Origin: an uncultured Gaiellaceae bacterium
GTDB taxonomy: Bacteria; Actinomycetota; Thermoleophilia; Gaiellales; Gaiellaceae
Direction: 5' to 3'
NCBI GenBank assembly: GCA_963745775.1
Contig: CAVUYY010000012.1
Coordinates: 13,920 to 77,919, forward strand
DNA: 64,000 bases
Part shown: positions 3,023-63,568 of the stretch, piece by piece
Position numbering within the stretch: position 1 is the first letter of the stretch
How the letters are laid out: every line of letters begins with the position of its first letter
The notes under the pieces: generated by a model
Database searches by the model: none
The model's input: the letters and a program-made list of their open reading frames with translations, nothing else
What the model was told of the DNA's origin: nothing
Made by a program: the position numbers and the translations under genes

Positions 3023-3774
3023 AAGGCGAACCGAACGAGCAGGATCACTCCGATCACGACCGCAGCGAGCAGGAGCAGCGTCAGCGCCAGGATCGTCAGG
3101 CCCGACGCGGCGAGCCTGAACGGCACATTCGGCGTCGAGTCGCCGCTGAACGACCGCTCGAGGTCGCGCTCCACCTGCCGCTTGATCCGCTCGGCCAGGG
3201 CGTCGCCGGCGTTCTTCGGTGCGTCGGTCTTCAGCGGCGGGAACGAGGAGGGGCCGCCGTCGACCGCGAGCTCGTAGATCCGCTGGTGCTGGATGTCCTT
3301 CAGCTGCGCCTCGCCATGGTCGTGGACGGTGACCCCCTCGGGGAGCGTGTTGCCGAGCAGCGCGCGGGTCGTCTCGGAGAGCAGGATCTGGCCCCCGTGC
3401 CCCGCAGCCGAGATCCTCGCCGCCCGGACGACGTCCAGCCCCAGATAGCCCTCGTCGCCGACCGACGGCTCGCCCGTGTGGAGGCCCATTCGCACCCGGA
3501 CCTCCGCACCGTCCGGCCAGGGGTGGGCGCGCAGGGCGCGTTGGGCAGCGACCGCTCCTCGCGCGGCGTCGCTCGCGCGCGCGAACGAGAAGAAGAAGGC
3601 GTCGCCCTGGGTGTCGATCTCGGTCCCGCCGGCGCCTCCGAGCGTCTCGCGGACGAGCCGCCGGTGCTCGCGAACGACCTCCGCGTAGCGATCTCCGAGC
3701 TGCTGCAGGAGCCGGGTCGAGCCCTCGATGTCCGTGAAGACGAACGTGACCGTCCCGCCTGGAAGTGCGCTCAT
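3019..3774 (-). CDS. Class III adenylate/guanylate cyclase with C-terminal TM anchor
   Basis: [12 protein letters not shown] ... GDAFFFSF ... VRMGLHTGE are class III cyclase motifs. The last ~30 residues ([27 protein letters not shown]) form a hydrophobic helix. Start taken at Met5 of ORF 3019..3786. Confidence 0.8.
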
Positions 3775-3788
3775 GGGACTATTCAAGC

Positions 3789-5669
<1,881 letters not shown>

Positions 5670-14060: not shown

Positions 14061-15055
14061 AGCACGAGCTCCGCCATCACCTGGAGCGCCTCGGGCTGCC
14101 TGACCTGGAGCACCATCGTCGAGATCTCCGCTTCGCGCCAGGCCTCGAGCCGCTCCGCGATCCGCTCCTTCGGCCCGACGAGCGCGACCTCGTCGACGAG
14201 CTCGTCCGGAACGGCCATCGCCGCCTCGCCCTTCTGCCCGTCGAGATACAGCTCCTGGATCCGAGCCGCGGCCTCCTCGTAGCCGTAGCGCTGGGTGAGC
14301 GTGTTGTAGAAGTTCTTCCCGCGCGCGCCCATGCCGCCGACGTAGAGCGCGAGCATCGGCTTCAGCAGGTCGCGGCACATCTGGACGTCGTCGCCGACGA
14401 CGACGGGGCAGAGTGGAGCCACGTCGAAGCCGTCGCGCGCGTGCTCGAGCGAGGGGCCGTGCACCTCCTGGAAGCGCTGCGGCGAGAAGAAGATCGGGAT
14501 CCAGCCGTCCGCGATCTCGGCCGCGAGCGCGACGCTCTTCGGCCCGATCACTGCGAGGTAGATCGGGACGTCGGCGCGCAGCGGCTTCACGATCAGCTTC
14601 AGCGGCTTGCCGAGCCCGGTCGCGCCGTCGCCGGAGTAGGGGATGTCGTAGTGCGGGCCGTGGTGCTCGACGGTCTCGCGGCGGAGCGCCGAGCGGACGA
14701 TCTCGACGTACTCGCGCGTGCGGCCGAGGGGCTTTCCCCAGGCGACGCCGTGCCAGCCCTCGACGACCTGCGGGCCGGAGGTGCCGAGTCCGAGGAGGAC
14801 GCGGCCGCCGGAGAGGTGGTCGAGCGTCGCGACGGTCATCGCCGTCGCGGCCGGGGTGCGTGCCGGCATCTGCATGATCGCGGTGCCGATCCCGATCTGC
14901 TCGGTGGTCGCGGCGATCCAGCTCGCGACGGTGACGGCGTCCGTGCCGTACGCCTCGGACGTCCAGGCGGAGTGGAAGCCGAGCCGGTCGGCCTCCTGCG
15001 CGAGCGCGACGGCGGACTTCGGATCGTCGTAGCCGAGCTGGAGGCCGAGCTTCAT
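14057..15055 (-). CDS. LLM-class (luciferase-like) F420-dependent oxidoreductase
   Basis: 332 aa. MKLGLQLGY ... [13 protein letters not shown] ... [16 protein letters not shown] is typical of F420-dependent LLM enzymes. Confidence 0.85.
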
Positions 15056-32078: not shown

Positions 32079-32696
32079 CTAGGCGAGCTCAGTCTCGATC
32101 GCGCGCGCCAGCTCTGCCGGGTCGAAGCCGTCGGGGCCGCGGCCGCCCTGGAAGGCGACGCGCCCGTCGCGGTCGATCAGGTAGAGCCGGTCGGGCCAGC
32201 CGCCGTAGGCGAGAGCGCAAGCGTCGTCGACGTCGTCGAGGAGCACCGGGATCCGCGTCTCGAGCCGCGCCACGCACTCAACGGCGACCGCCGCGCGCTC
32301 CTCGAGCGAGGTGGGATCCGTGACCGCGATTTCCTCACGGCGGTTGTCGGCGAGCACCCAGCCGTCCTCGGGATGCGCCTCGCGGATGTAGACGATGAAG
32401 AACGCGACCTCGGCCCCGTGTCGCTCGTAGAGCTCCTCCAGCTCGCCCAACTGGCGGCGGAAGGGCGGTCAGGTGTACGAGCCGAAGACGAGCGCGACCG
32501 GCGTGCCGGCGAGATCGGCGAGGCGAATCCGCTCACCGCTCGGTCGGTGCGACTCGGAATCGAGCCGCGGCAGATCGAAAAGAAATGCATTGTCGCCGGG
32601 CCGGAGCTCGGGTGTCATCAGGCTCCGGTAGGTGGGCGAGCCCATCACGTCCTCGAGCGAGAGCGGTGAGTCGGTTGGCGTCTCGGGCGCGCTCAT
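32079..32696 (-). CDS. Deiodinase-like thioredoxin-fold protein with in-frame TGA (candidate selenoprotein; otherwise a nonsense pseudogene)
   Basis: ORFs 32469..32696 and 32079..32450 are in the same frame. They are separated only by TGA (32469-32471) plus 6 sense codons, reading ...PVALVFGSYT-TGA-PPFRRQLGELEELY...VYIREAHPEDGW...WPDRLYLIDRDGRVAF. Confidence 0.6.
32435..32457 (-). promoter_or_regulatory. Candidate bacterial SECIS hairpin
   Basis: On the mRNA, 11 nt after UGA: CCGCCAGUU-GGGCG-AGCUGGAGG. This gives about 9 pairs with one G-A mismatch and one G-U wobble. The G-rich apical loop starts 20 nt after UGA. Confidence 0.35.
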
Positions 32697-32708
32697 GGGT
32701 CCGGCGCC

Positions 32709-33593
32709 TCAGCCGACGAGGCGGCGGCGCTGCATGTCGACGCTCGGCGTGTTCACCTTCCATACGAGCCCGACGCGGCGCATGCCGCGGATCACGAGTC
32801 CGCCGATGTCGAGCTCCCACGGTTTGAGGCCGTGGAACGCCGACGACGGGAATGCGTGGTGGTTGTGGTGCCACGACTCGCCGAACGAGATCCACGAGAG
32901 CCACCAGACGTTGCGCGACTCGTCCTTGACCTGGAAGCGCCGTGAGCCGACGAAGTGGCACACCGAGTTGACCGACCACGTGATGTGGTGGAGCAGGAAG
33001 ATCCGGATCAGGCCGCCCCAGAACATCGCCTGGAGCCCTGCACCGAGCGTCCCTCCCCAGATCCAGCCGGCCACGAACGGGAGTAGCAACGACGCTGCTA
33101 CCCAGGCCGGGAACCAGCGTGAGATGAAGACCATCCCGCGGTCGGCGAGCAGGTCCTTGGCGTACTTCGTCCACTCGGCGCGGCCGACGGTGCGGAAGAG
33201 CCAGCCGATGTGGGCGTGCCAGAGCCCGGCGAGCTTGCCGCGTAGGCCGGGCTCGAAGCCGGCGTGCGGCGAGTGTGGATCGCCTTCCCGGTCGGCGAAG
33301 TTGTGGTGCTTGCGGTGGTCGGAGACCCACCGGATCACCGGCCCCTGCACCGCCATCGAGCCGAGCACGGCCAGGCTGTAGCGGATCGACTTGTACGTCT
33401 CGTAGGAGCGGTGCGTGAAGAGCCGGTGGAAGCCGATCGAGATCCCCAGCGTCGTCAGGGCGTAGCCGACCGCGAAGATCGTCAGGTCGCGCCAGGTCAC
33501 GTAGCTGCCCCAGAAGAGGAAGATCGACGCGAGGAAGGCGGCGAAGGGCAGCGTCACGCCGATGAGGTTCGTGATCTTCTGGCCGCGGCTCAT
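32709..33593 (-). CDS. Membrane acyl-CoA (stearoyl-CoA delta-9 type) fatty-acid desaturase
   Basis: The three His boxes HRLFTH, HRKHH and HNHHAF occur in a multi-TM protein. Start at Met57 of ORF 32709..33761. Confidence 0.9.
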   Translation of the reverse strand: MSRGQKITNLIGVTLPFAAFLASIFLFWGSYVTWRDLTIFAVGYALTTLGISIGFHRLFTHRSYETYKSIRYSLAVLGSMAVQGPVIRWVSDHRKHHNFADREGDPHSPHAGFEPGLRGKLAGLWHAHIGWLFRTVGRAEWTKYAKDLLADRGMVFISRWFPAWVAASLLLPFVAGWIWGGTLGAGLQAMFWGGLIRIFLLHHITWSVNSVCHFVGSRRFQVKDESRNVWWLSWISFGESWHHNHHAFPSSAFHGLKPWELDIGGLVIRGMRRVGLVWKVNTPSVDMQRRRLVG

Positions 33594-38454: not shown

Positions 38455-40836
38455 ATGGAGCACGCCGACCTGCTCGACGCGCCGCCGGCCGATCTGCTCG
38501 CCGCGGCCCGCGAGCGCCGGCGCGGCGGCGGCCTCGTCACCTACTCGCCGAAGGTCTTCATTCCGCTGACGACGCTGTGCCGCGACGTCTGCGGCTACTG
38601 CACCTTCGCCCGTCCGCCGCGGCGAGGGGAGCGGGCGTACCTGAGCGAGGACGAGGTGCTTGCGATCGCCCGCGCCGGCGCCGCGGCCGGTTGCACGGAG
38701 GCGCTGTTCACGCTTGGCGACAAGCCGGAGCTCCGCTACAAGGTCGCGCGCGAGGAGCTCGCCGAGCTCGGGTGCGCGACGACGATCGAGTACCTCGCCC
38801 GCGTCGCGAAGCTCGTGCTCGAAGAGACCGGCCTGCTCCCGCACCTGAATCCCGGCGTCATGACCCGCGCCGAGCTCGAGCTCCTTCGCCCGGTCTCCGC
38901 CTCGATGGGGATCATGCTCGAGACGACCGCCGATCGACTCGCGGAGCGCGGTGGACCACACTGGGCCTCGCCCGACAAGCTGCCCGCCCGCCGGCTCGAG
39001 ACGATCGAGCTCGCCGGCGAGCTTCGGATCCCCTTCACGAGCGGGATCCTGATCGGGATCGGCGAGACGCGGGCCGAGCGGCTCGAGGCGCTGGAGGCGC
39101 TCGCCGGGCTCCACCGCCGCCACGGCCACCTCCAGGAGGTGATCGTCCAGAACTTCCGCGCGAAGCCCGGCACGCGGATGGCCGACCACGCCGAGCCGTC
39201 GCTCGACGACCACCTCTGGACGATCGCCGCGGCGCGGCTGCTCTTGCCCGCCGACGTCTCGGTGCAGGCGCCGCCGAACCTCGCGTACGACGACTTTCCA
39301 CGCCTCCTCGACGCCGGCATCGACGACTGGGGCGGCGTCTCGCCGGTCACGATCGACCACGTGAATCCGGAGGCACCGTGGCCGGAGCGCGAGCGGCTCG
39401 CCGACGCGACGCGCTCGCGCGGGCTCGAGCTCGCGCCGCGGCTGCCCGTCTACCCGGCCTTTCTCAGCGGCGAGTGGCTTGCGCCGCAGATCCTGACCCG
39501 AGCGCTCCGGAGCTCCGATTCGCTCGGGCTCGCGCGCGAGGATGGCTGGCATCCAGGCGAGCGCGGCGCCATCCCCTTCACCGTGGCGCGCGATCCGCTC
39601 CCGCTCGAGACGAGCGACGAGCTGGGGGAGGACGAGCTCGTCCGGCTCTTCCGTGCGCGCGGCGAGGAGCGGCAGCGCGTCTTCGCCGCGGCCGACCGGC
39701 TCCGCCGCGAGGTCTGCGGCGACGAGGTCACCTACGTCGTCACCCGGAACATCCAGTACACGAACGTCTGCTACTTCCGCTGCGGCTTCTGCGCCTTCTC
39801 GAAGGGGAAGCTCGCGGCCAACCTGCGCGGGGCGCCGTACCTCGTGCCGCTCGAGGAGATCGTCCGCCGCTCCCGCGAGGCCTGGGAGCGCGGCGCGACC
39901 GAGGTCTGCCTCCAGGGTGGGATCCATCCCGCGTTCACGGGCGACTACTACGCCGACGTCGTCGCCGCGATCCGGGCCGAGCTCCCGGATCTGCACATCC
40001 ACGCCTTCTCCGCGCTCGAGATCTGGCAGGGCGCGACGACGCTCGGCTTGCCGGTCGAGGACTATCTCGAGCGGCTGCGGGTGCTCGGGCTCGGCTCGCT
40101 CCCCGGCACCGCCGCCGAGATCCTCGACGACGAGGTGCGCGCGCTCATCTGCCCCGACAAGGTCTCGACCGAGCAGTGGCTCGAGGTTCACGCCGCCGCA
40201 CACCGAGTCGGCCTGCGCTCGAACGTGACGATCATGTTCGGGCACGTCGAGTCGCCGAGGCACTGGGCTCGGCACCTGCTCCGAGCGCGCGCCCAGCAGC
40301 AGGCGACGGGCGGATTCACCGAGCTCGTACCGCTGCCGTTCGTCCACATGGAGGCGCCCATCTGGCTGAAGGGGCGAGCGCGCTCGGGGCCGACGTTCGG
40401 CGAGACGCTGCTCCTCCACGCCGTCGCCAGGCTCGCCCTCCATCCGCACATCACGAACATCCAGGCGTCGTGGGTGAAGCTCGGGCCGGCCGGTGTCGCA
40501 GCGGCGCTCGCCGCGGGTGTCAACGACCTCGGCGGCACGCTGATGAACGAATCGATCTCACGCTCGGCCGGCTCCGAGCACGGTCAGGAAATGGCTCCAG
40601 AGGCGATGGAGGCGCTGATCCGAGCGAGCGGCCGGACCCCGCGTCAGCGCACGACGCTCTACGGCGAGGTTCCGGCCGAACGGCGGGCGGCATCCTTCGG
40701 AGCAGCCCCTCTGGCAGAGCCGCTCAGCCCGCACGTCCGGGAGGCGAGGCTCCAGGCGCCGCCGAAGCTCGCCAGGCCCGGGCATGTTGGCATCTGGGCC
40801 AATCGCGCGCTAGGCTGCGCGTCCGATCAGTCCTAG
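38455..40836 (+). CDS. fbiC: Bifunctional FO synthase (CofG+CofH), F420 biosynthesis
   Basis: 793 aa with two radical-SAM CxxxCxxC motifs (CRDVCGYCTF and CYFRCGFCAF). Length and order are typical of actinobacterial FbiC. Confidence 0.9.
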   Translation: MEHADLLDAPPADLLAAARERRRGGGLVTYSPKVFIPLTTLCRDVCGYCTFARPPRRGERAYLSEDEVLAIARAGAAAGCTEALFTLGDKPELRYKVAREELAELGCATTIEYLARVAKLVLEETGLLPHLNPGVMTRAELELLRPVSASMGIMLETTADRLAERGGPHWASPDKLPARRLETIELAGELRIPFTSGILIGIGETRAERLEALEALAGLHRRHGHLQEVIVQNFRAKPGTRMADHAEPSLDDHLWTIAAARLLLPADVSVQAPPNLAYDDFPRLLDAGIDDWGGVSPVTIDHVNPEAPWPERERLADATRSRGLELAPRLPVYPAFLSGEWLAPQILTRALRSSDSLGLAREDGWHPGERGAIPFTVARDPLPLETSDELGEDELVRLFRARGEERQRVFAAADRLRREVCGDEVTYVVTRNIQYTNVCYFRCGFCAFSKGKLAANLRGAPYLVPLEEIVRRSREAWERGATEVCLQGGIHPAFTGDYYADVVAAIRAELPDLHIHAFSALEIWQGATTLGLPVEDYLERLRVLGLGSLPGTAAEILDDEVRALICPDKVSTEQWLEVHAAAHRVGLRSNVTIMFGHVESPRHWARHLLRARAQQQATGGFTELVPLPFVHMEAPIWLKGRARSGPTFGETLLLHAVARLALHPHITNIQASWVKLGPAGVAAALAAGVNDLGGTLMNESISRSAGSEHGQEMAPEAMEALIRASGRTPRQRTTLYGEVPAERRAASFGAAPLAEPLSPHVREARLQAPPKLARPGHVGIWANRALGCASDQS

Positions 40837-60420: not shown

Positions 60421-63400
60421 CTAGTCCGGCGCGTCGACGAAGAGGTCGAAGTCTCCGGCCAGAACGCGGTCGATCCGGCCGGTGCGCATCCCCGTCGTGT
60501 TGCGGACGAGCGGCGAGGGCTCGTGGCGGTAACGCCGGACGATTCCCGGCTCGGGCCGATCCGGTGGCGGCGCGTTCTTGCCGTCGCCCGCCGGCGCCAC
60601 GTCGACGAGCACGGTGACGCGGTCGAACGAACGGTTCTCCTCGTGCGGGAGCTCGAGCACGTGCAGGCCGATCTCTTGCTTCAGCAGCGTGTAGGCGCCA
60701 AGCCCGGAGACGTCGAGGACGACGACGCCGTCGCCGCCGTTTCTGCGAATCCGCATCCCACGGCCGTCGGCCCAGCCGACGTACATCGTCGCGAGCTCTT
60801 GCACGAACCGATCGCAGGCGGCCGCATCCTCGGACTTGCCCGCCCGGACCGTGAGCGTCGCGTCGCTCGCCTCGCGCGCATCGAGACCTGCGAGCGCGGC
60901 CGTGAGCACGTGCAGGCGCGTCGCGAGCAGGCGGAGCAGCTCGGTCGAATGGGCCTCGCGCGCGGAGGAGAGGCGCGCACCAAGCCGTTCTGCCGTCGCC
61001 GTCGCGGCCCCCAGGCGATCGAGGTACTCGATCAGGCTCAGCACGTTCTGTCGATCCTCGGACTGCCAGAAGGCCGGCTCGCGCGCCTCCGCCAGCGCGT
61101 CCTCCTTGGCGTCGTCCCATGAGCGTACGCGCTCGCCGAGCGAGGCGAGCGCGCTCAGGAGGAAGGTCCCCTCGGCCTCCGTTCCGTCCGGCTCGAGCGC
61201 GACCCGTGCGACCGTGAGACCGCCCGGGTCGACCGGCTCCTCCGCCGCCGTGGCCGACTCCGGCTCGCCCGCATTCGGGTCGACGAAGGCGACGTCCAGT
61301 CCGGTCCCGTCGCGCGCGGTGATGAAGAGGAACTGATCGCCTTCCGGGAACTGCCGCTCGACGATCGCGGTCGCGATCCGTGTCAGCAGGTACCGCTCGA
61401 CGGCACGCTTGAGCGGGCGTGCGCCGAGCTCGGCGCTGAAGCCCTGCTCGATCAGGAAGTCGATCGCGGCCTCGTCCCACTCGACCGCCCACGGGTGCAT
61501 CCGGAAGCCGCGGCGTTCGAGCACGTCGTTGAGCTCCTTCTCGAGCAGTCCGCGCATGATCTCGCGGCCGAGTGGGCGGAAGACGACGACGCGGTCGAGG
61601 CGGTTCAGGAACTCCGGCCGGAACGACTGCTCGACCGACTTCGTCACCGTCGCGGGGTCGAACTCCCCCGAGCGTCCGGTGAACCCGACGCCGGGACCGC
61701 GTGGGATTGCGGAGCCCAGGTTGGAGGTCAGGATGATCACGCAGTGGCGCAGGTCGACCGTGCGCCCGTTGCGGTCGGTCAGGCGCCCGTCGTCGAACAC
61801 CTGCAGGAAGACGTCCCACACGTTCTGGTGTGCCTTCTCGAACTCGTCGAGCAGGAGCACCGTGAACGGCTGCTTGCGCACCGAGGAGATCAGCGGAGCG
61901 GCAGACTCACCCTCGGCGGAGTCGCCGAGCAGGCGCTCCAGGCTCTCAGGGGTCTGGAACTCGCTCATGTCCAGCCGGACGAGCCGGTCCGGAGAGCCGA
62001 AGAGGAACTCGCTGAAGGCCTTTGCGATCTCGGTCTTGCCCGTGCCGGTAGGCCCGACGAAGAGGAAGACCCCGAGCGGCCGGGTCGGGTCGGTCAGCCC
62101 GGCCTTCACCAGCGCGACTCGGTCGACGAGGCACTCGACCGCCTCCGGCTGGCCGAGCACGCGGCTCTCGAAGAACGCTCGCACGTCGTCCAGGCTGAGG
62201 GGCGAGCGTGGATCGAGCACGTGCAGCGGCAGGCCCGTCGCGGCGCTCAGCGTCGCGATCACGCTCTCGGTCGTCACCTCCGTCGCGAGCCCGCGCGTGA
62301 CGCGGTCGAGAACGAGCTCGAGCAGGCGAAGGAGGTTCCCCGGCGCGGCCGTCCCGGGGAGGTAGTGGTTCGCCAGGTCGAGCGACTCGGCCAGCGTGTG
62401 CTCGTCGACGTCGACGCCGTAGTCGCGCGACCAGCCGCGCGCGACCTCGAGTGCGTCCTCGTCCGTCATCGGCGCCAGGCGGATCACCTCGAAGATCCGC
62501 GTCACGCGCGGCCGGCTCTGGGCCAGCAGCTCGTAGGCAGTGGGATCGATCTCGCCGATGACGGCGATGTCGTGGGCCTCGATCGCCGGGAGCATCGCGT
62601 CGAGGAGCCCGTGCGGGCTGCGTGAGTGCTGACCTGCGTAGAGCGCCTCCTCGAAGCTCGGGAAGAGCCAGACGATCGAGCGCCGGCTCATCCGCCCGAC
62701 GATCTCCTGGACGCGTCCCTCGAGCTCGCCGATGTAGATCTGACCGGCATTCACCTCGGACGCGCTCGCCTGGAACGCGATCCACGGCTGCTCCAGGCGG
62801 CGTAGCGCCTCGACGACCAGGGTCGTCTTGCCGACGCCCTGCTCGCCGACGAGGAGCACGGAGCGTGGGCTGCGCGGCGAGAGCGCCGCTGCGACCGCGT
62901 CGACCGCCGCGACGCGCGAGCCTACGAGCGTGGCCTGGGGGTGGTCGTCGACCTTGACGAGCCGCCCGAGATCGCGGAAGAAGCCGGTGTCGATCGACTG
63001 CTCCCGCCACTGATCGAGGGCGGGCGAGAGGAGGGTCCGCGTCGCCGGGGTGGCAGCCTCGAGCAGCTCGCCTACGAGCGGCTGCAGGCCGACGTCGAGC
63101 GTCGCGAGGTCGGCGGCCTTCAGGCGCTCGCCCTGCGCGACGCGCGCGTCGAGGAACGGCGAGACTGCCTTGGCGAGCGGGCTGCCGCTCCAGTCCTCCT
63201 CGGCCGCCTCGAGCACGGCCAGGATGCGACTTGTTCGGCACGACCGCGAACGCGCGTAGCAGCAGCACGCGCTCGCCCCAGTCCGCGCGCGCGAACCGCT
63301 TCTTCGCCCGGTCGGCCCAATCAGCAGGCGGCGTGCGCCCGGCTGCGATCGCCCCGAGCGTGCCCGCGCGGAGGAACTTCGAGGCGTCCCGGGCCGCGAC

Positions 63401-63568
63401 GGAGAACGCATCGTGGTTGACGCGGCCGGGGTTGCACAGCAGCACGACGAGGCGTCCGAACAGCTCGTCGTCTTCGAGCTCGTCGGCGTCGAGCCAGTCG
63501 TGGTTCTCGGCCAACTGCTTCGCCAGGGCCTTGGCCTCGGCCAGGCCGTCCGCTTCGTGCCGTGCCAT
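60421..63568 (-). pseudogene. ClpB-like double-AAA+ ATPase with C-terminal GGQ-less release-factor-like domain (one frame change near the N-terminus)
   Basis: The N-terminal 114 codons come from ORF 61946..63568 (MARHEADGLAEAK...AFAVVPNKS). After a switch near 63224-63229 the gene continues in ORF 60421..63411 (RILAVLEAAEEDW...). Motifs: GEQGVGKTT; GPTGTGKTE / LLLDEFEKAH / RPEFLNRLD. The C-terminal RF-like blocks are described in the findings. Confidence 0.75.

Follow-up and report, generated by a model that had tools for sequence, protein, structure and literature searches.

Introduction

Can a TGA triplet within a bacterial gene, at the very position where the encoded protein would carry its catalytic residue, be read as selenocysteine (Sec) rather than as a stop? 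This question is raised by positions 32079-32696, on the minus strand, of a 64,000-nucleotide (nt) stretch of DNA from an uncultured Gaiellaceae bacterium (contig CAVUYY010000012.1); the whole of this stretch is referred to below as the window. An earlier note, prepared from the letters of the window, had pointed to two open reading frames (ORFs) in the same frame, interrupted only by a TGA, and had proposed a deiodinase-like selenoprotein. The comparative analysis described here makes it highly probable that 32079-32696 is one gene for a soluble thioredoxin-fold protein of the deiodinase family, of about 22 kDa, in which UGA codon 76 is decoded as Sec. In other words, the in-frame TGA very probably encodes selenocysteine. 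The evidence comes from the continuity of the frame among relatives, the identity of the protein family and the presence of a covarying RNA hairpin downstream of the TGA.

A Single Reading Frame Across the TGA

The mechanical list of ORFs contains a 75-codon ORF at 32469..32696 (minus strand), terminated by TGA 32471-32469, and a second one of 123 amino acids (aa) at 32079..32450, which lies in the same frame and has a TTG start at 32450. Inspection of the frame reveals a single run of 205 codons, with the TGA as its sole internal stop, and the coordinates and peptide quoted in the earlier note are correct. The read-through product consists of 205 residues and runs across the TGA as ...VALVFGSYT-[TGA]-PPFRRQLGELEELYERHG...

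A protein search returned 1343 homologues. Among the close ones (80-93% identity), nearly every entry is annotated as a fragment of about 123 aa that covers only the part following the TGA. The full-length database homologues are 53-66% identical and have Cys at the catalytic column, apart from a few with W or S. Homologous DNA was taken from long contigs, 80 metagenome loci and 80 species-representative genomes (of 446 matches). The latter are mostly metagenome-assembled genomes of Gaiellaceae and other Thermoleophilia, together with Limnocylindria, Dehalococcoidia, Eisenbacteria and Acidimicrobiia. In all 164 loci with a locatable motif, which stem from independent assemblies and span 54-93% identity, the codon at the catalytic column is TGA, with zero variation across 152 distinct sequences.

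The pattern of variation around this codon is that of a coding sequence. Across the same 152 sequences, the first and second positions of the ten codons preceding the TGA (P-V-A-L-V/I-F-G-S-Y-T) and of the four following it (P-P-F-R) show an entropy of 0-0.23 bit, the sole exception being a Val/Ile alternation at codon -6, and third positions vary by up to 1.5 bits. Since this pattern continues across the TGA, the region forms one continuous translated frame, and purifying selection in a single frame on both sides supports a single complete gene. Cys homologues complete the picture: FGSYT-C-PPF occurs in the proteins P0004-P0012 and P0054, and the corresponding codons are TGT or TGC in L166-L169. 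The alignment that the earlier note had called for, with Cys or TGA expected at this column, thus gave both.

These data bear directly on the possibility that the TGA is a genuine nonsense mutation and that the two ORFs are remnants of a Cys-type gene. Annotation pipelines do treat the gene as fragments, and no gene of the Sec machinery is seen in the window. Yet the same TGA recurs in several phyla, variation on both sides is confined to third positions, and the RNA hairpin described below is co-conserved. The truncated gene with a decayed downstream half, which the earlier note had envisaged in close relatives as the sign of such a remnant, was not encountered, as neither half contains frameshifts or extra stops. 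A pseudogene is effectively refuted by the conservation data. Even less credit can be given to a one-base error of sequencing or assembly in a TGC, TGT or TGG codon. The window is a single sequence, but 163 independent loci, obtained in many projects and with many assemblers, have the identical codon, which leaves such an error a negligible chance.

The Deiodinase Family and the Catalytic Position

For profile and PDB-sequence scoring of the 205-residue product, the stop was replaced by Cys. The protein matches the Pfam family PF00837 (T4_deiodinase) with 101.7 bits against a cutoff of 27 (E 5.1e-29; profile positions 86-234 of 237). The match to AhpC-TSA (PF00578) is far weaker (30.7 bits, cutoff 26), as is that to Redoxin. 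The best PDB sequence matches are the catalytic core of mouse iodothyronine deiodinase 3 (Dio3; 4tr3, E 1.5e-26) and Dio2 (9h48, E 1.3e-20). In both alignments, the TGA column coincides with the catalytic Sec, crystallised as Cys, of FGSCT-C-PPF; moreover, YIREAHPEDGW is aligned to IYIEEAHPSDGW, and GGRGPDGF to GGRGPDGY. The earlier assignment of the locus to a deiodinase-like thioredoxin-fold gene, with the TGA at the redox-active position, agrees with both lines of comparison. Membership of the NCBIfam family NF038285 (deiodinase_rel) was also considered and rejected, as the match reaches 188.6 bits, below the cutoff of 250, and covers only profile positions 192-340 of 347.

Residues S73, T75, Y103, E106, H108 and W113 are invariant in 147 sequences and correspond to the proton-relay and loop-D network of the deiodinases, in which the roles of the Dio residues have been described (PMC11592359). 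The position of Arg275 in Dio3, which forms a carboxylate clamp, corresponds to R186 (codon 32139-32141, minus strand) within GGRGPDGF. Arg is found there in 23 of the 147 Sec-type sequences, including that of the window, and the remaining ones carry E, V or P. Two further deiodinase residues, His219 of Dio3 (His182 of Dio2) and the distal Cys239 (Cys205 of Dio2), are replaced by the invariant Pro128 and Pro150.

As a structural proxy, the closest natural full-length Cys homologue, P0004, was used, which is 60% identical to the window protein and was modelled with a predicted local distance difference test score of 79 overall and mostly 88-98 in the core. Its best structural neighbours are Dio2 (9h48, template modelling score 0.81) and Dio3 (4tr3, 0.77); ResA/TlpA-type oxidoreductases and the 1-Cys peroxiredoxin AhpE rank below them. 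In this model, the counterpart of Cys141 (C159 of P0004) sits on a long helix, 149-163, which follows the Dio insertion. In the proxy model, the N-terminus is disordered, the helices are short and a long hydrophobic helix is missing. In the window protein itself, the N-terminal 60 residues are hydrophilic (MSAPETPTDSPLSLEDVMGSPTYRS...), so that it has no N-terminal transmembrane anchor.

A SECIS-Type Hairpin Downstream of the UGA

Immediately 3' of the UGA, within the coding sequence, the window RNA is predicted to form the hairpin CUUCC-GC-CGCC [AGUUG] GGCG-a-GC-u-GGAGG, with an energy of -15.8 kcal/mol and as part of the minimum free energy (MFE) structure. In 61 of the 65 distinct 3' flanks of relatives, MFE folding puts the first nucleotide of the loop (AGUUG, AGUU or GGU) at nt 20-21, the U of UGA being nt 1. 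The published model of the bacterial selenocysteine insertion sequence (SECIS; bacterial form, bSECIS) specifies a loop of 3-9 nt, an upper stem of at least 4 base pairs (bp), a G at loop position 1 or 2 with G or U after it, a distance of 16-37 nt from the UGA and an MFE of at most -7.5 kcal/mol (PMC13188914). The window hairpin falls within all of these limits, having a 5-nt loop, a stem of 4+2+5 bp (11 bp), G-U at loop positions 2-3 and a spacing of 16 nt.

The pairing is preserved while the sequence changes. Among 112 distinct 42-mers, 110 fit one of two pairing registers, A (90 sequences) or B (20 sequences). In register A, pair 17-27 occurs as GC in 57 sequences, CG in 27, AU in three and GU in three, and pair 15-30, which was not used for class definition, occurs as CG in 77, GC in 12 and UG in one. 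When the 3' arm was slid by 1-3 nt, pairing in register A fell to 16-49%. In register B, three pairs change on both sides and 95.7% of the cells are paired (29-61% in the slid controls), although such percentages are inflated and partly circular for both classes, which required part of the helix to pair. The compensatory pair types and the unselected pairs 14-31 and 15-30 are free of this circularity.

Synonymous sites are constrained as well. The Leu codon in the loop is UUG in 125 of 125 sequences, whereas UUG makes up 3.3% of the Leu codons in the rest of these genes, and where Val occupies the loop position, it is mostly encoded by GUU, which likewise ends in A or U. Synonymous re-encoding with the codon usage of the family placed a hairpin over nt 21-23 in 30% of cases, against 95% observed. 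Additionally, the hairpin is not kept in the Cys lineages L166 (TGT) and L167/168 (TGC), where CAA-CUG or GGG-CUC is found instead. It has thereby been lost in two of three Cys lineages, and the third (L169) retains a fossil form. Covariation, synonymous-site constraint and this loss together indicate, at the level of sequence comparison, that the hairpin is maintained by selection.

Two groups of relatives deserve separate mention. The protein P0054 (L169:361-990) is of the Cys type (TGT) and keeps the fossil hairpin GGCGUC-AGUUG-GACG together with the UUG codon, which suggests a recent Sec-to-Cys conversion. P0050 (L171:446-1054 and L172:446-1054, two independent assemblies) has TCA (Ser) as its catalytic codon and a fully intact hairpin, GCCGGC-AGUU-GCCGGC. 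The same hairpin is shared by L150, where the catalytic codon is TGA, and the TCA form may represent a recent change from Sec to Ser.

In the earlier note, a hairpin beginning 11 nt after the UGA, with a loop starting 20 nt after it, had been drawn as CCGCCAGUU-GGGCG-AGCUGGAGG. The position has held, and the particular stem has not: it is 69% paired, compared with 71% in shuffles, and its covariation lies below that of the shuffles. In the conserved hairpin, these nucleotides pair in a different register, with AGUUG instead of GGGCG as the loop, so that the earlier proposal was right about the place and wrong about the register.

The loop also bears on a split gene, in which a 75-aa peptide ending at the TGA and a 123-aa peptide initiated at UUG 32450 would be made separately and possibly assemble. 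A conserved UUG does lie 18 nt after the TGA, and both ORFs are called by gene finders. Against this, the six intervening codons (P-P-F-R-x-Q), which would be untranslated in a split gene, are constrained at the protein level and vary only synonymously. In 31 sequences, the UUG is replaced by GUU, GUG, UUC or GUC, of which UUC and GUC are not start codons, and the requirement for the loop accounts for the UUG in any case. Moreover, the two peptides would lack the catalytic residue, and the break between them would fall within the beta1-alpha1 turn of the active site. A split gene is, on this evidence, very improbable.

Selenocysteine Machinery and the Weighing of the Sec Reading

A further possibility is that the UGA is read through as an amino acid other than Sec, whether by hairpin-stimulated near-cognate insertion of Trp, Cys or Arg, by Cys insertion through the Sec pathway, or under a variant genetic code. 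Its appeal lies in the absence of Sec machinery genes from the window and the flanks of its relatives, as far as these were searched, and in some database proteins with W at the column, namely P0048 (L170:666-1295), P0014 and P0051. The W forms, however, come from calling TGA under another code table: the codon in the DNA of P0048 is TGA, and the stored protein is not obtained under table 11, so that Trp as a real variant was rejected in favour of a TGA=Trp calling artefact. TGA is also the most frequent ordinary stop codon of the window (24 of its 39 confidently coding ORFs), and the desaturase gene 12 nt upstream is itself terminated by TGA; hence no variant genetic code is involved. The column is the catalytic Sec/Cys site of the family, at which Trp, Arg or Gly would be inactive as a nucleophile, and the hairpin has the geometry of a SelB-type SECIS, with its G-U loop and minimal spacing. 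Read-through as a residue other than Sec is accordingly judged improbable.

For Sec insertion, the machinery would have to be encoded elsewhere. The Sec trait is known in Actinobacteria, including the deep-branching Rubrobacter xylanophilus (PMC1794560), and nothing specific was found in the literature on Sec use in Gaiellales or Thermoleophilia. A tblastn match in the window to an approximate query of E. coli SelB turned out to be LepA/EF4 (941 bits to TIGR01393) and was discarded. The genes selA, selB, selC and selD presumably lie in other parts of the source genome.

Several results weigh against the Sec reading or against parts of it. ARAGORN found no tRNA at all in the 64-kb window, and hence no tRNA-Sec, nor any tRNA-Sec in 1.66 Mb comprising the window and the flanks of its relatives. 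No SelD match was obtained by tblastn in the window and these flanks, the approximate E. coli SelD query being a rough probe. Pfam scans of 24 larger ORFs of the window gave no SelA, SelB or SelD domains, and selA was covered by these scans only, not by a homology probe of the flanks. Folding energy compared with dinucleotide shuffles revealed no excess stability (z = -0.8 and +0.6), a test that is uninformative in sequence with 70% GC and was replaced by the comparative tests given above. Searches of Rfam, at both gathering and permissive thresholds, produced chance matches only, with no family for the hairpin. To these are added the partial circularity of the pairing percentages and the replacements at Pro128 and Pro150, which make the relay only partly deiodinase-like. 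With respect to function, no characterised bacterial homologue of the deiodinases was found in the literature, and the desaturase link discussed below is absent from 64 distant loci, so that it cannot define the function of the family as a whole.

A de novo scan of 1.7 Mb for further genes with an in-frame TGA yielded only adjacent genes sharing a frame. One case of another kind was noted in a TypA/BipA-like GTPase gene (L130:12912-14480), whose frame is interrupted by a TGA at 14082. Coding signal is present both before and after this TGA, which has no Cys/Sec context and probably reflects a sequencing error or a pseudogene.

Recurrent Annotation Error

The loop of the hairpin explains how the gene is commonly misread. 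Gene callers take the UUG of the loop as a start codon, which generates a recurrent 123-aa "fragment". Dozens of relatives are called as proteins of this length, such as the "hypothetical protein" of Gaiellaceae bacterium MAG52_C11, and the expectation in the earlier note that standard gene callers would split or truncate the gene is borne out by these fragments. The consequences are broad. With 446 matches among GTDB species representatives, hundreds of soil Thermoleophilia genomes carry the gene; public protein sets lose the half with the active site, and some calls of the Joint Genome Institute (JGI) render Sec as Trp.

Proposed Mechanism and Function

In the proposed mechanism, the hairpin within the ORF would act as a bacterial SECIS, presenting its GUU-containing loop 16 nt after the UGA. 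It would recruit the complex of SelB, GTP and Sec-tRNA(Sec) to the ribosome, and the UGA would be read as Sec and not as a stop. In the folded protein, the selenolate of U76 may be activated by a hydrogen-bond network formed by S73, T75, Y103, E106 and H108, and may attack an electrophilic atom of the substrate, such as the oxygen of a peroxide, or a halogen. The Se-OH or Se-X formed in this way would be resolved by the invariant Cys141 or by an external thiol, yielding a selenenylsulfide that a thioredoxin-type system would reduce. This chemistry is drawn from the deiodinase and peroxiredoxin literature and from the invariant residues.

The physiological role can be addressed only tentatively. 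The preferred possibility, still well short of an even chance, is a peroxiredoxin-like reductase of hydroperoxides, perhaps lipid hydroperoxides, which is favoured because of the coupling to the desaturase. Reductive dehalogenation is the main alternative and is considered unlikely. In the Gaiellaceae clade, translational coupling to the desaturase suggests that the function is tied to this O2-activating enzyme or to its lipid products. A more specific and rather doubtful idea is that the Sec-containing deiodinase-fold enzyme is a dedicated partner of the desaturase, either reducing lipid or hydrogen peroxides that arise at the di-iron enzyme or on its products, or acting on halogenated or oxidised acyl chains. 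If this were true, fatty-acid desaturases would have a redox accessory of a new kind, and a bacterial deiodinase homologue would have its first physiological role; the clade-specific Arg186 would bind an acyl or carboxylate substrate.

The Desaturase Partner and Neighbouring Genes

The earlier note had placed the gene 12 nt downstream of a membrane desaturase and had presumed co-transcription. The pairing is indeed tight and conserved, but it is limited to one clade of Gaiellaceae. Among close relatives (approximately at least 70% identity, Gaiellaceae), all 45 testable loci have the desaturase as the immediate upstream gene in the same orientation, and it is itself 82-99% identical. Among more distant Sec-type loci, this adjacency occurs in 0 of 64, and no other common neighbour was found there. 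The spacing between the two genes is 12 nt in the window and in L005, and in L001-L003 the genes overlap by 4 nt (ATGA). The start of the desaturase is uncertain, its longest ORF reaching 33761. The coordinates of these features are collected in Table 1.

Table 1. Features of the putative selenoprotein locus and its desaturase partner in the window.
Feature	Position	Strand	Details
Deiodinase-like, putative selenoprotein gene, complete	32079..32696	-	ATG 32696-32694; 205 sense codons including the probable UGA-Sec codon 76; stop TAG 32081-32079
In-frame TGA (UGA), probable selenocysteine codon U76	32469..32471	-	Within motif FGSYT-U-PPF, 32460-32486
SECIS-type hairpin in coding sequence	32435..32463	-	nt +9 to +37 (U of UGA = 1); core helix nt 14-19 with 25-31 (32441-32458); lower stem UUCC/GGAG
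Apical loop AGUUG	32448..32452	-	Its UUG (32450-32448, Leu83) is the false start of the 123-aa ORF 32079..32450
Y103-I-R-E106-A-H108-P-E-D-G-W113 motif, deiodinase proton-relay / loop-D edge	32358..32390	-	Equivalent by alignment to Dio3 Tyr197, Glu200, His202, Trp207
TGC codon of Cys141, sole invariant cysteine	32274..32276	-	C in 147/147; candidate resolving residue for a selenenylsulfide
12-nt spacer, contains GAGG	32697..32708	-	From desaturase stop TGA 32711-32709 to ATG 32696 of the putative selenoprotein gene
Membrane fatty-acid desaturase	32709..33593	-	PF00487, E 2e-20; His boxes HRLFTH / HRKHH / HNHHA, pattern of delta-9/stearoyl-CoA desaturase (SCD) type

Downstream of the pair lies a convergent gene for a 1051-aa regulator with adenylate-cyclase and AAA_16 domains, and a divergent Liv transporter is located upstream of the desaturase. 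With these two neighbours, the transcription unit consists of the desaturase and the selenoprotein gene. A scan for promoters and terminators gave nothing informative.

A second pairing with an O2-activating enzyme was observed in one Cys lineage, to which it is confined: in L167:2-1087 and L168:2-1120, a cytochrome P450 (haem motif FGGGSRTCIG) is encoded about 35-40 nt upstream of the Cys-type homologue, on the same strand. This observation is anecdotal.

The remainder of the window was characterised by Pfam scans of its larger ORFs, which revealed fatty-acid metabolism genes, a Liv-type ABC transporter, an FO-synthase fusion, LeuRS and MurJ. Positions 8000-28800 hold a dense fatty-acid and acyl-CoA cluster, with several acyl-CoA dehydrogenases, a thiolase, an AMP-dependent ligase, an alpha/beta hydrolase and SnoaL-like proteins. 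It lies mostly on the strand of the desaturase unit, and its synteny is kept in L001 and L004. The same two relatives carry, in the same position as the window (38455-40836, plus strand), a gene for a fused FO synthase of F420 biosynthesis, a 793-aa double radical-SAM protein of the CofG/CofH type. At 60421-63411 (minus strand), a 996-aa AAA+ protein (AAA_2, ClpB_D2-small) matches the PCRF release-factor domain in its C-terminal part (E 1.4e-6), which is an unusual domain combination. Another thioredoxin-like protein, of 634 aa (DUF255 / Thioredox_DsbH, E 2.5e-78), is encoded at 3765-5669 (plus strand) and is unrelated to the selenoprotein.

Comparison with Known Systems

The window gene is a member of the bacterial deiodinase-like selenoprotein family known since 2005. 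Such proteins were first described by Zhang, Fomenko and Gladyshev in the Sargasso Sea metagenome (PMC1088965) and are treated as an established family in reviews from 2022 and 2026 (PMC9312934, PMC13188914), so that the earlier note was right to mention such reports. The shared features are the PF00837 domain, the in-frame UGA, read as Sec, at the active site of a thioredoxin fold, the existence of Cys homologues, a SECIS within the ORF with G in a small apical loop, and a presumed redox function. The differences concern motif and habitat. The reviews give UxxC as the motif of the bacterial family, whereas the window clade resembles animal deiodinases in having T-U-P-P-F and lacking a Cys at +3; it is by the description in these reviews only that the clade is set apart from the published representatives (MFL2763324.1, MBO99264.1). 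The published family comes from marine plankton, and the window clade from soil Gaiellaceae and other Thermoleophilia, one clade of which has the two-gene unit with the desaturase.

The vertebrate deiodinases Dio1-3 share with the window protein the motifs FGS.T-U-PPF and YI.EAHP.DGW, in the window clade also GGRGPDG(F/Y), and the Dio-specific insertion loop. Unlike them, the window protein lacks an N-terminal membrane anchor, has Tyr74 in place of the proximal Cys, carries a different invariant Cys (C141) and has proline at the positions of His219 and Cys239 of Dio3. The SECIS of the vertebrate genes is located in the 3' untranslated region (UTR), that of the window gene within the ORF, and thyroid hormones are not the expected substrate of the window protein. 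Peroxiredoxins (the 1-Cys AhpE, and atypical 2-Cys forms with the resolving Cys on a later helix) resemble it in the thioredoxin fold, the N-terminal extension and the nucleophile at the start of helix alpha1, and a single conserved distal Cys could resolve the intermediate. They differ in that the canonical peroxidatic motif PxxxT/SxxC is not evident around U76 and in that the deiodinase match is much stronger. The 347-aa deiodinase family protein NF038285 matches over its C-terminal 150 residues, but its N-terminal portion of about 190 residues is absent from the window protein.

At the RNA level, the element resembles the bSECIS consensus, as modelled in bSECISearch, and the SECIS of E. coli fdhF in being a hairpin directly 3' of the UGA, within the ORF, with energy and spacing inside the limits. 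Its sequence is unrelated to that of fdhF, its spacing is the shortest that the model allows, and relatives use two or three alternative registers (loops AGUUG, AGUU and GGU), in which it departs from the consensus.

Against this background, the new elements are modest. They include a very large clade of soil Thermoleophilia whose motif is the animal-like T-U-P-P-F, a SECIS that is well supported and has an invariant G-U-U loop, an explanation of the systematic annotation error, and a clade-specific operon with a desaturase. If Sec insertion is confirmed, selenium use would extend to the Gaiellaceae, a soil lineage that is abundant and has barely been cultured, and this bears on the ecology of selenium in soil. 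The combination of an animal-like active site with a desaturase operon would also provide a testable handle on the function of the deiodinase fold before thyroid hormones, as the active site of the animal deiodinases (TUPPF, YIxEAHPxDGW, GGRGPDG) is better preserved in the window clade than in the marine UxxC forms cited in the reviews.

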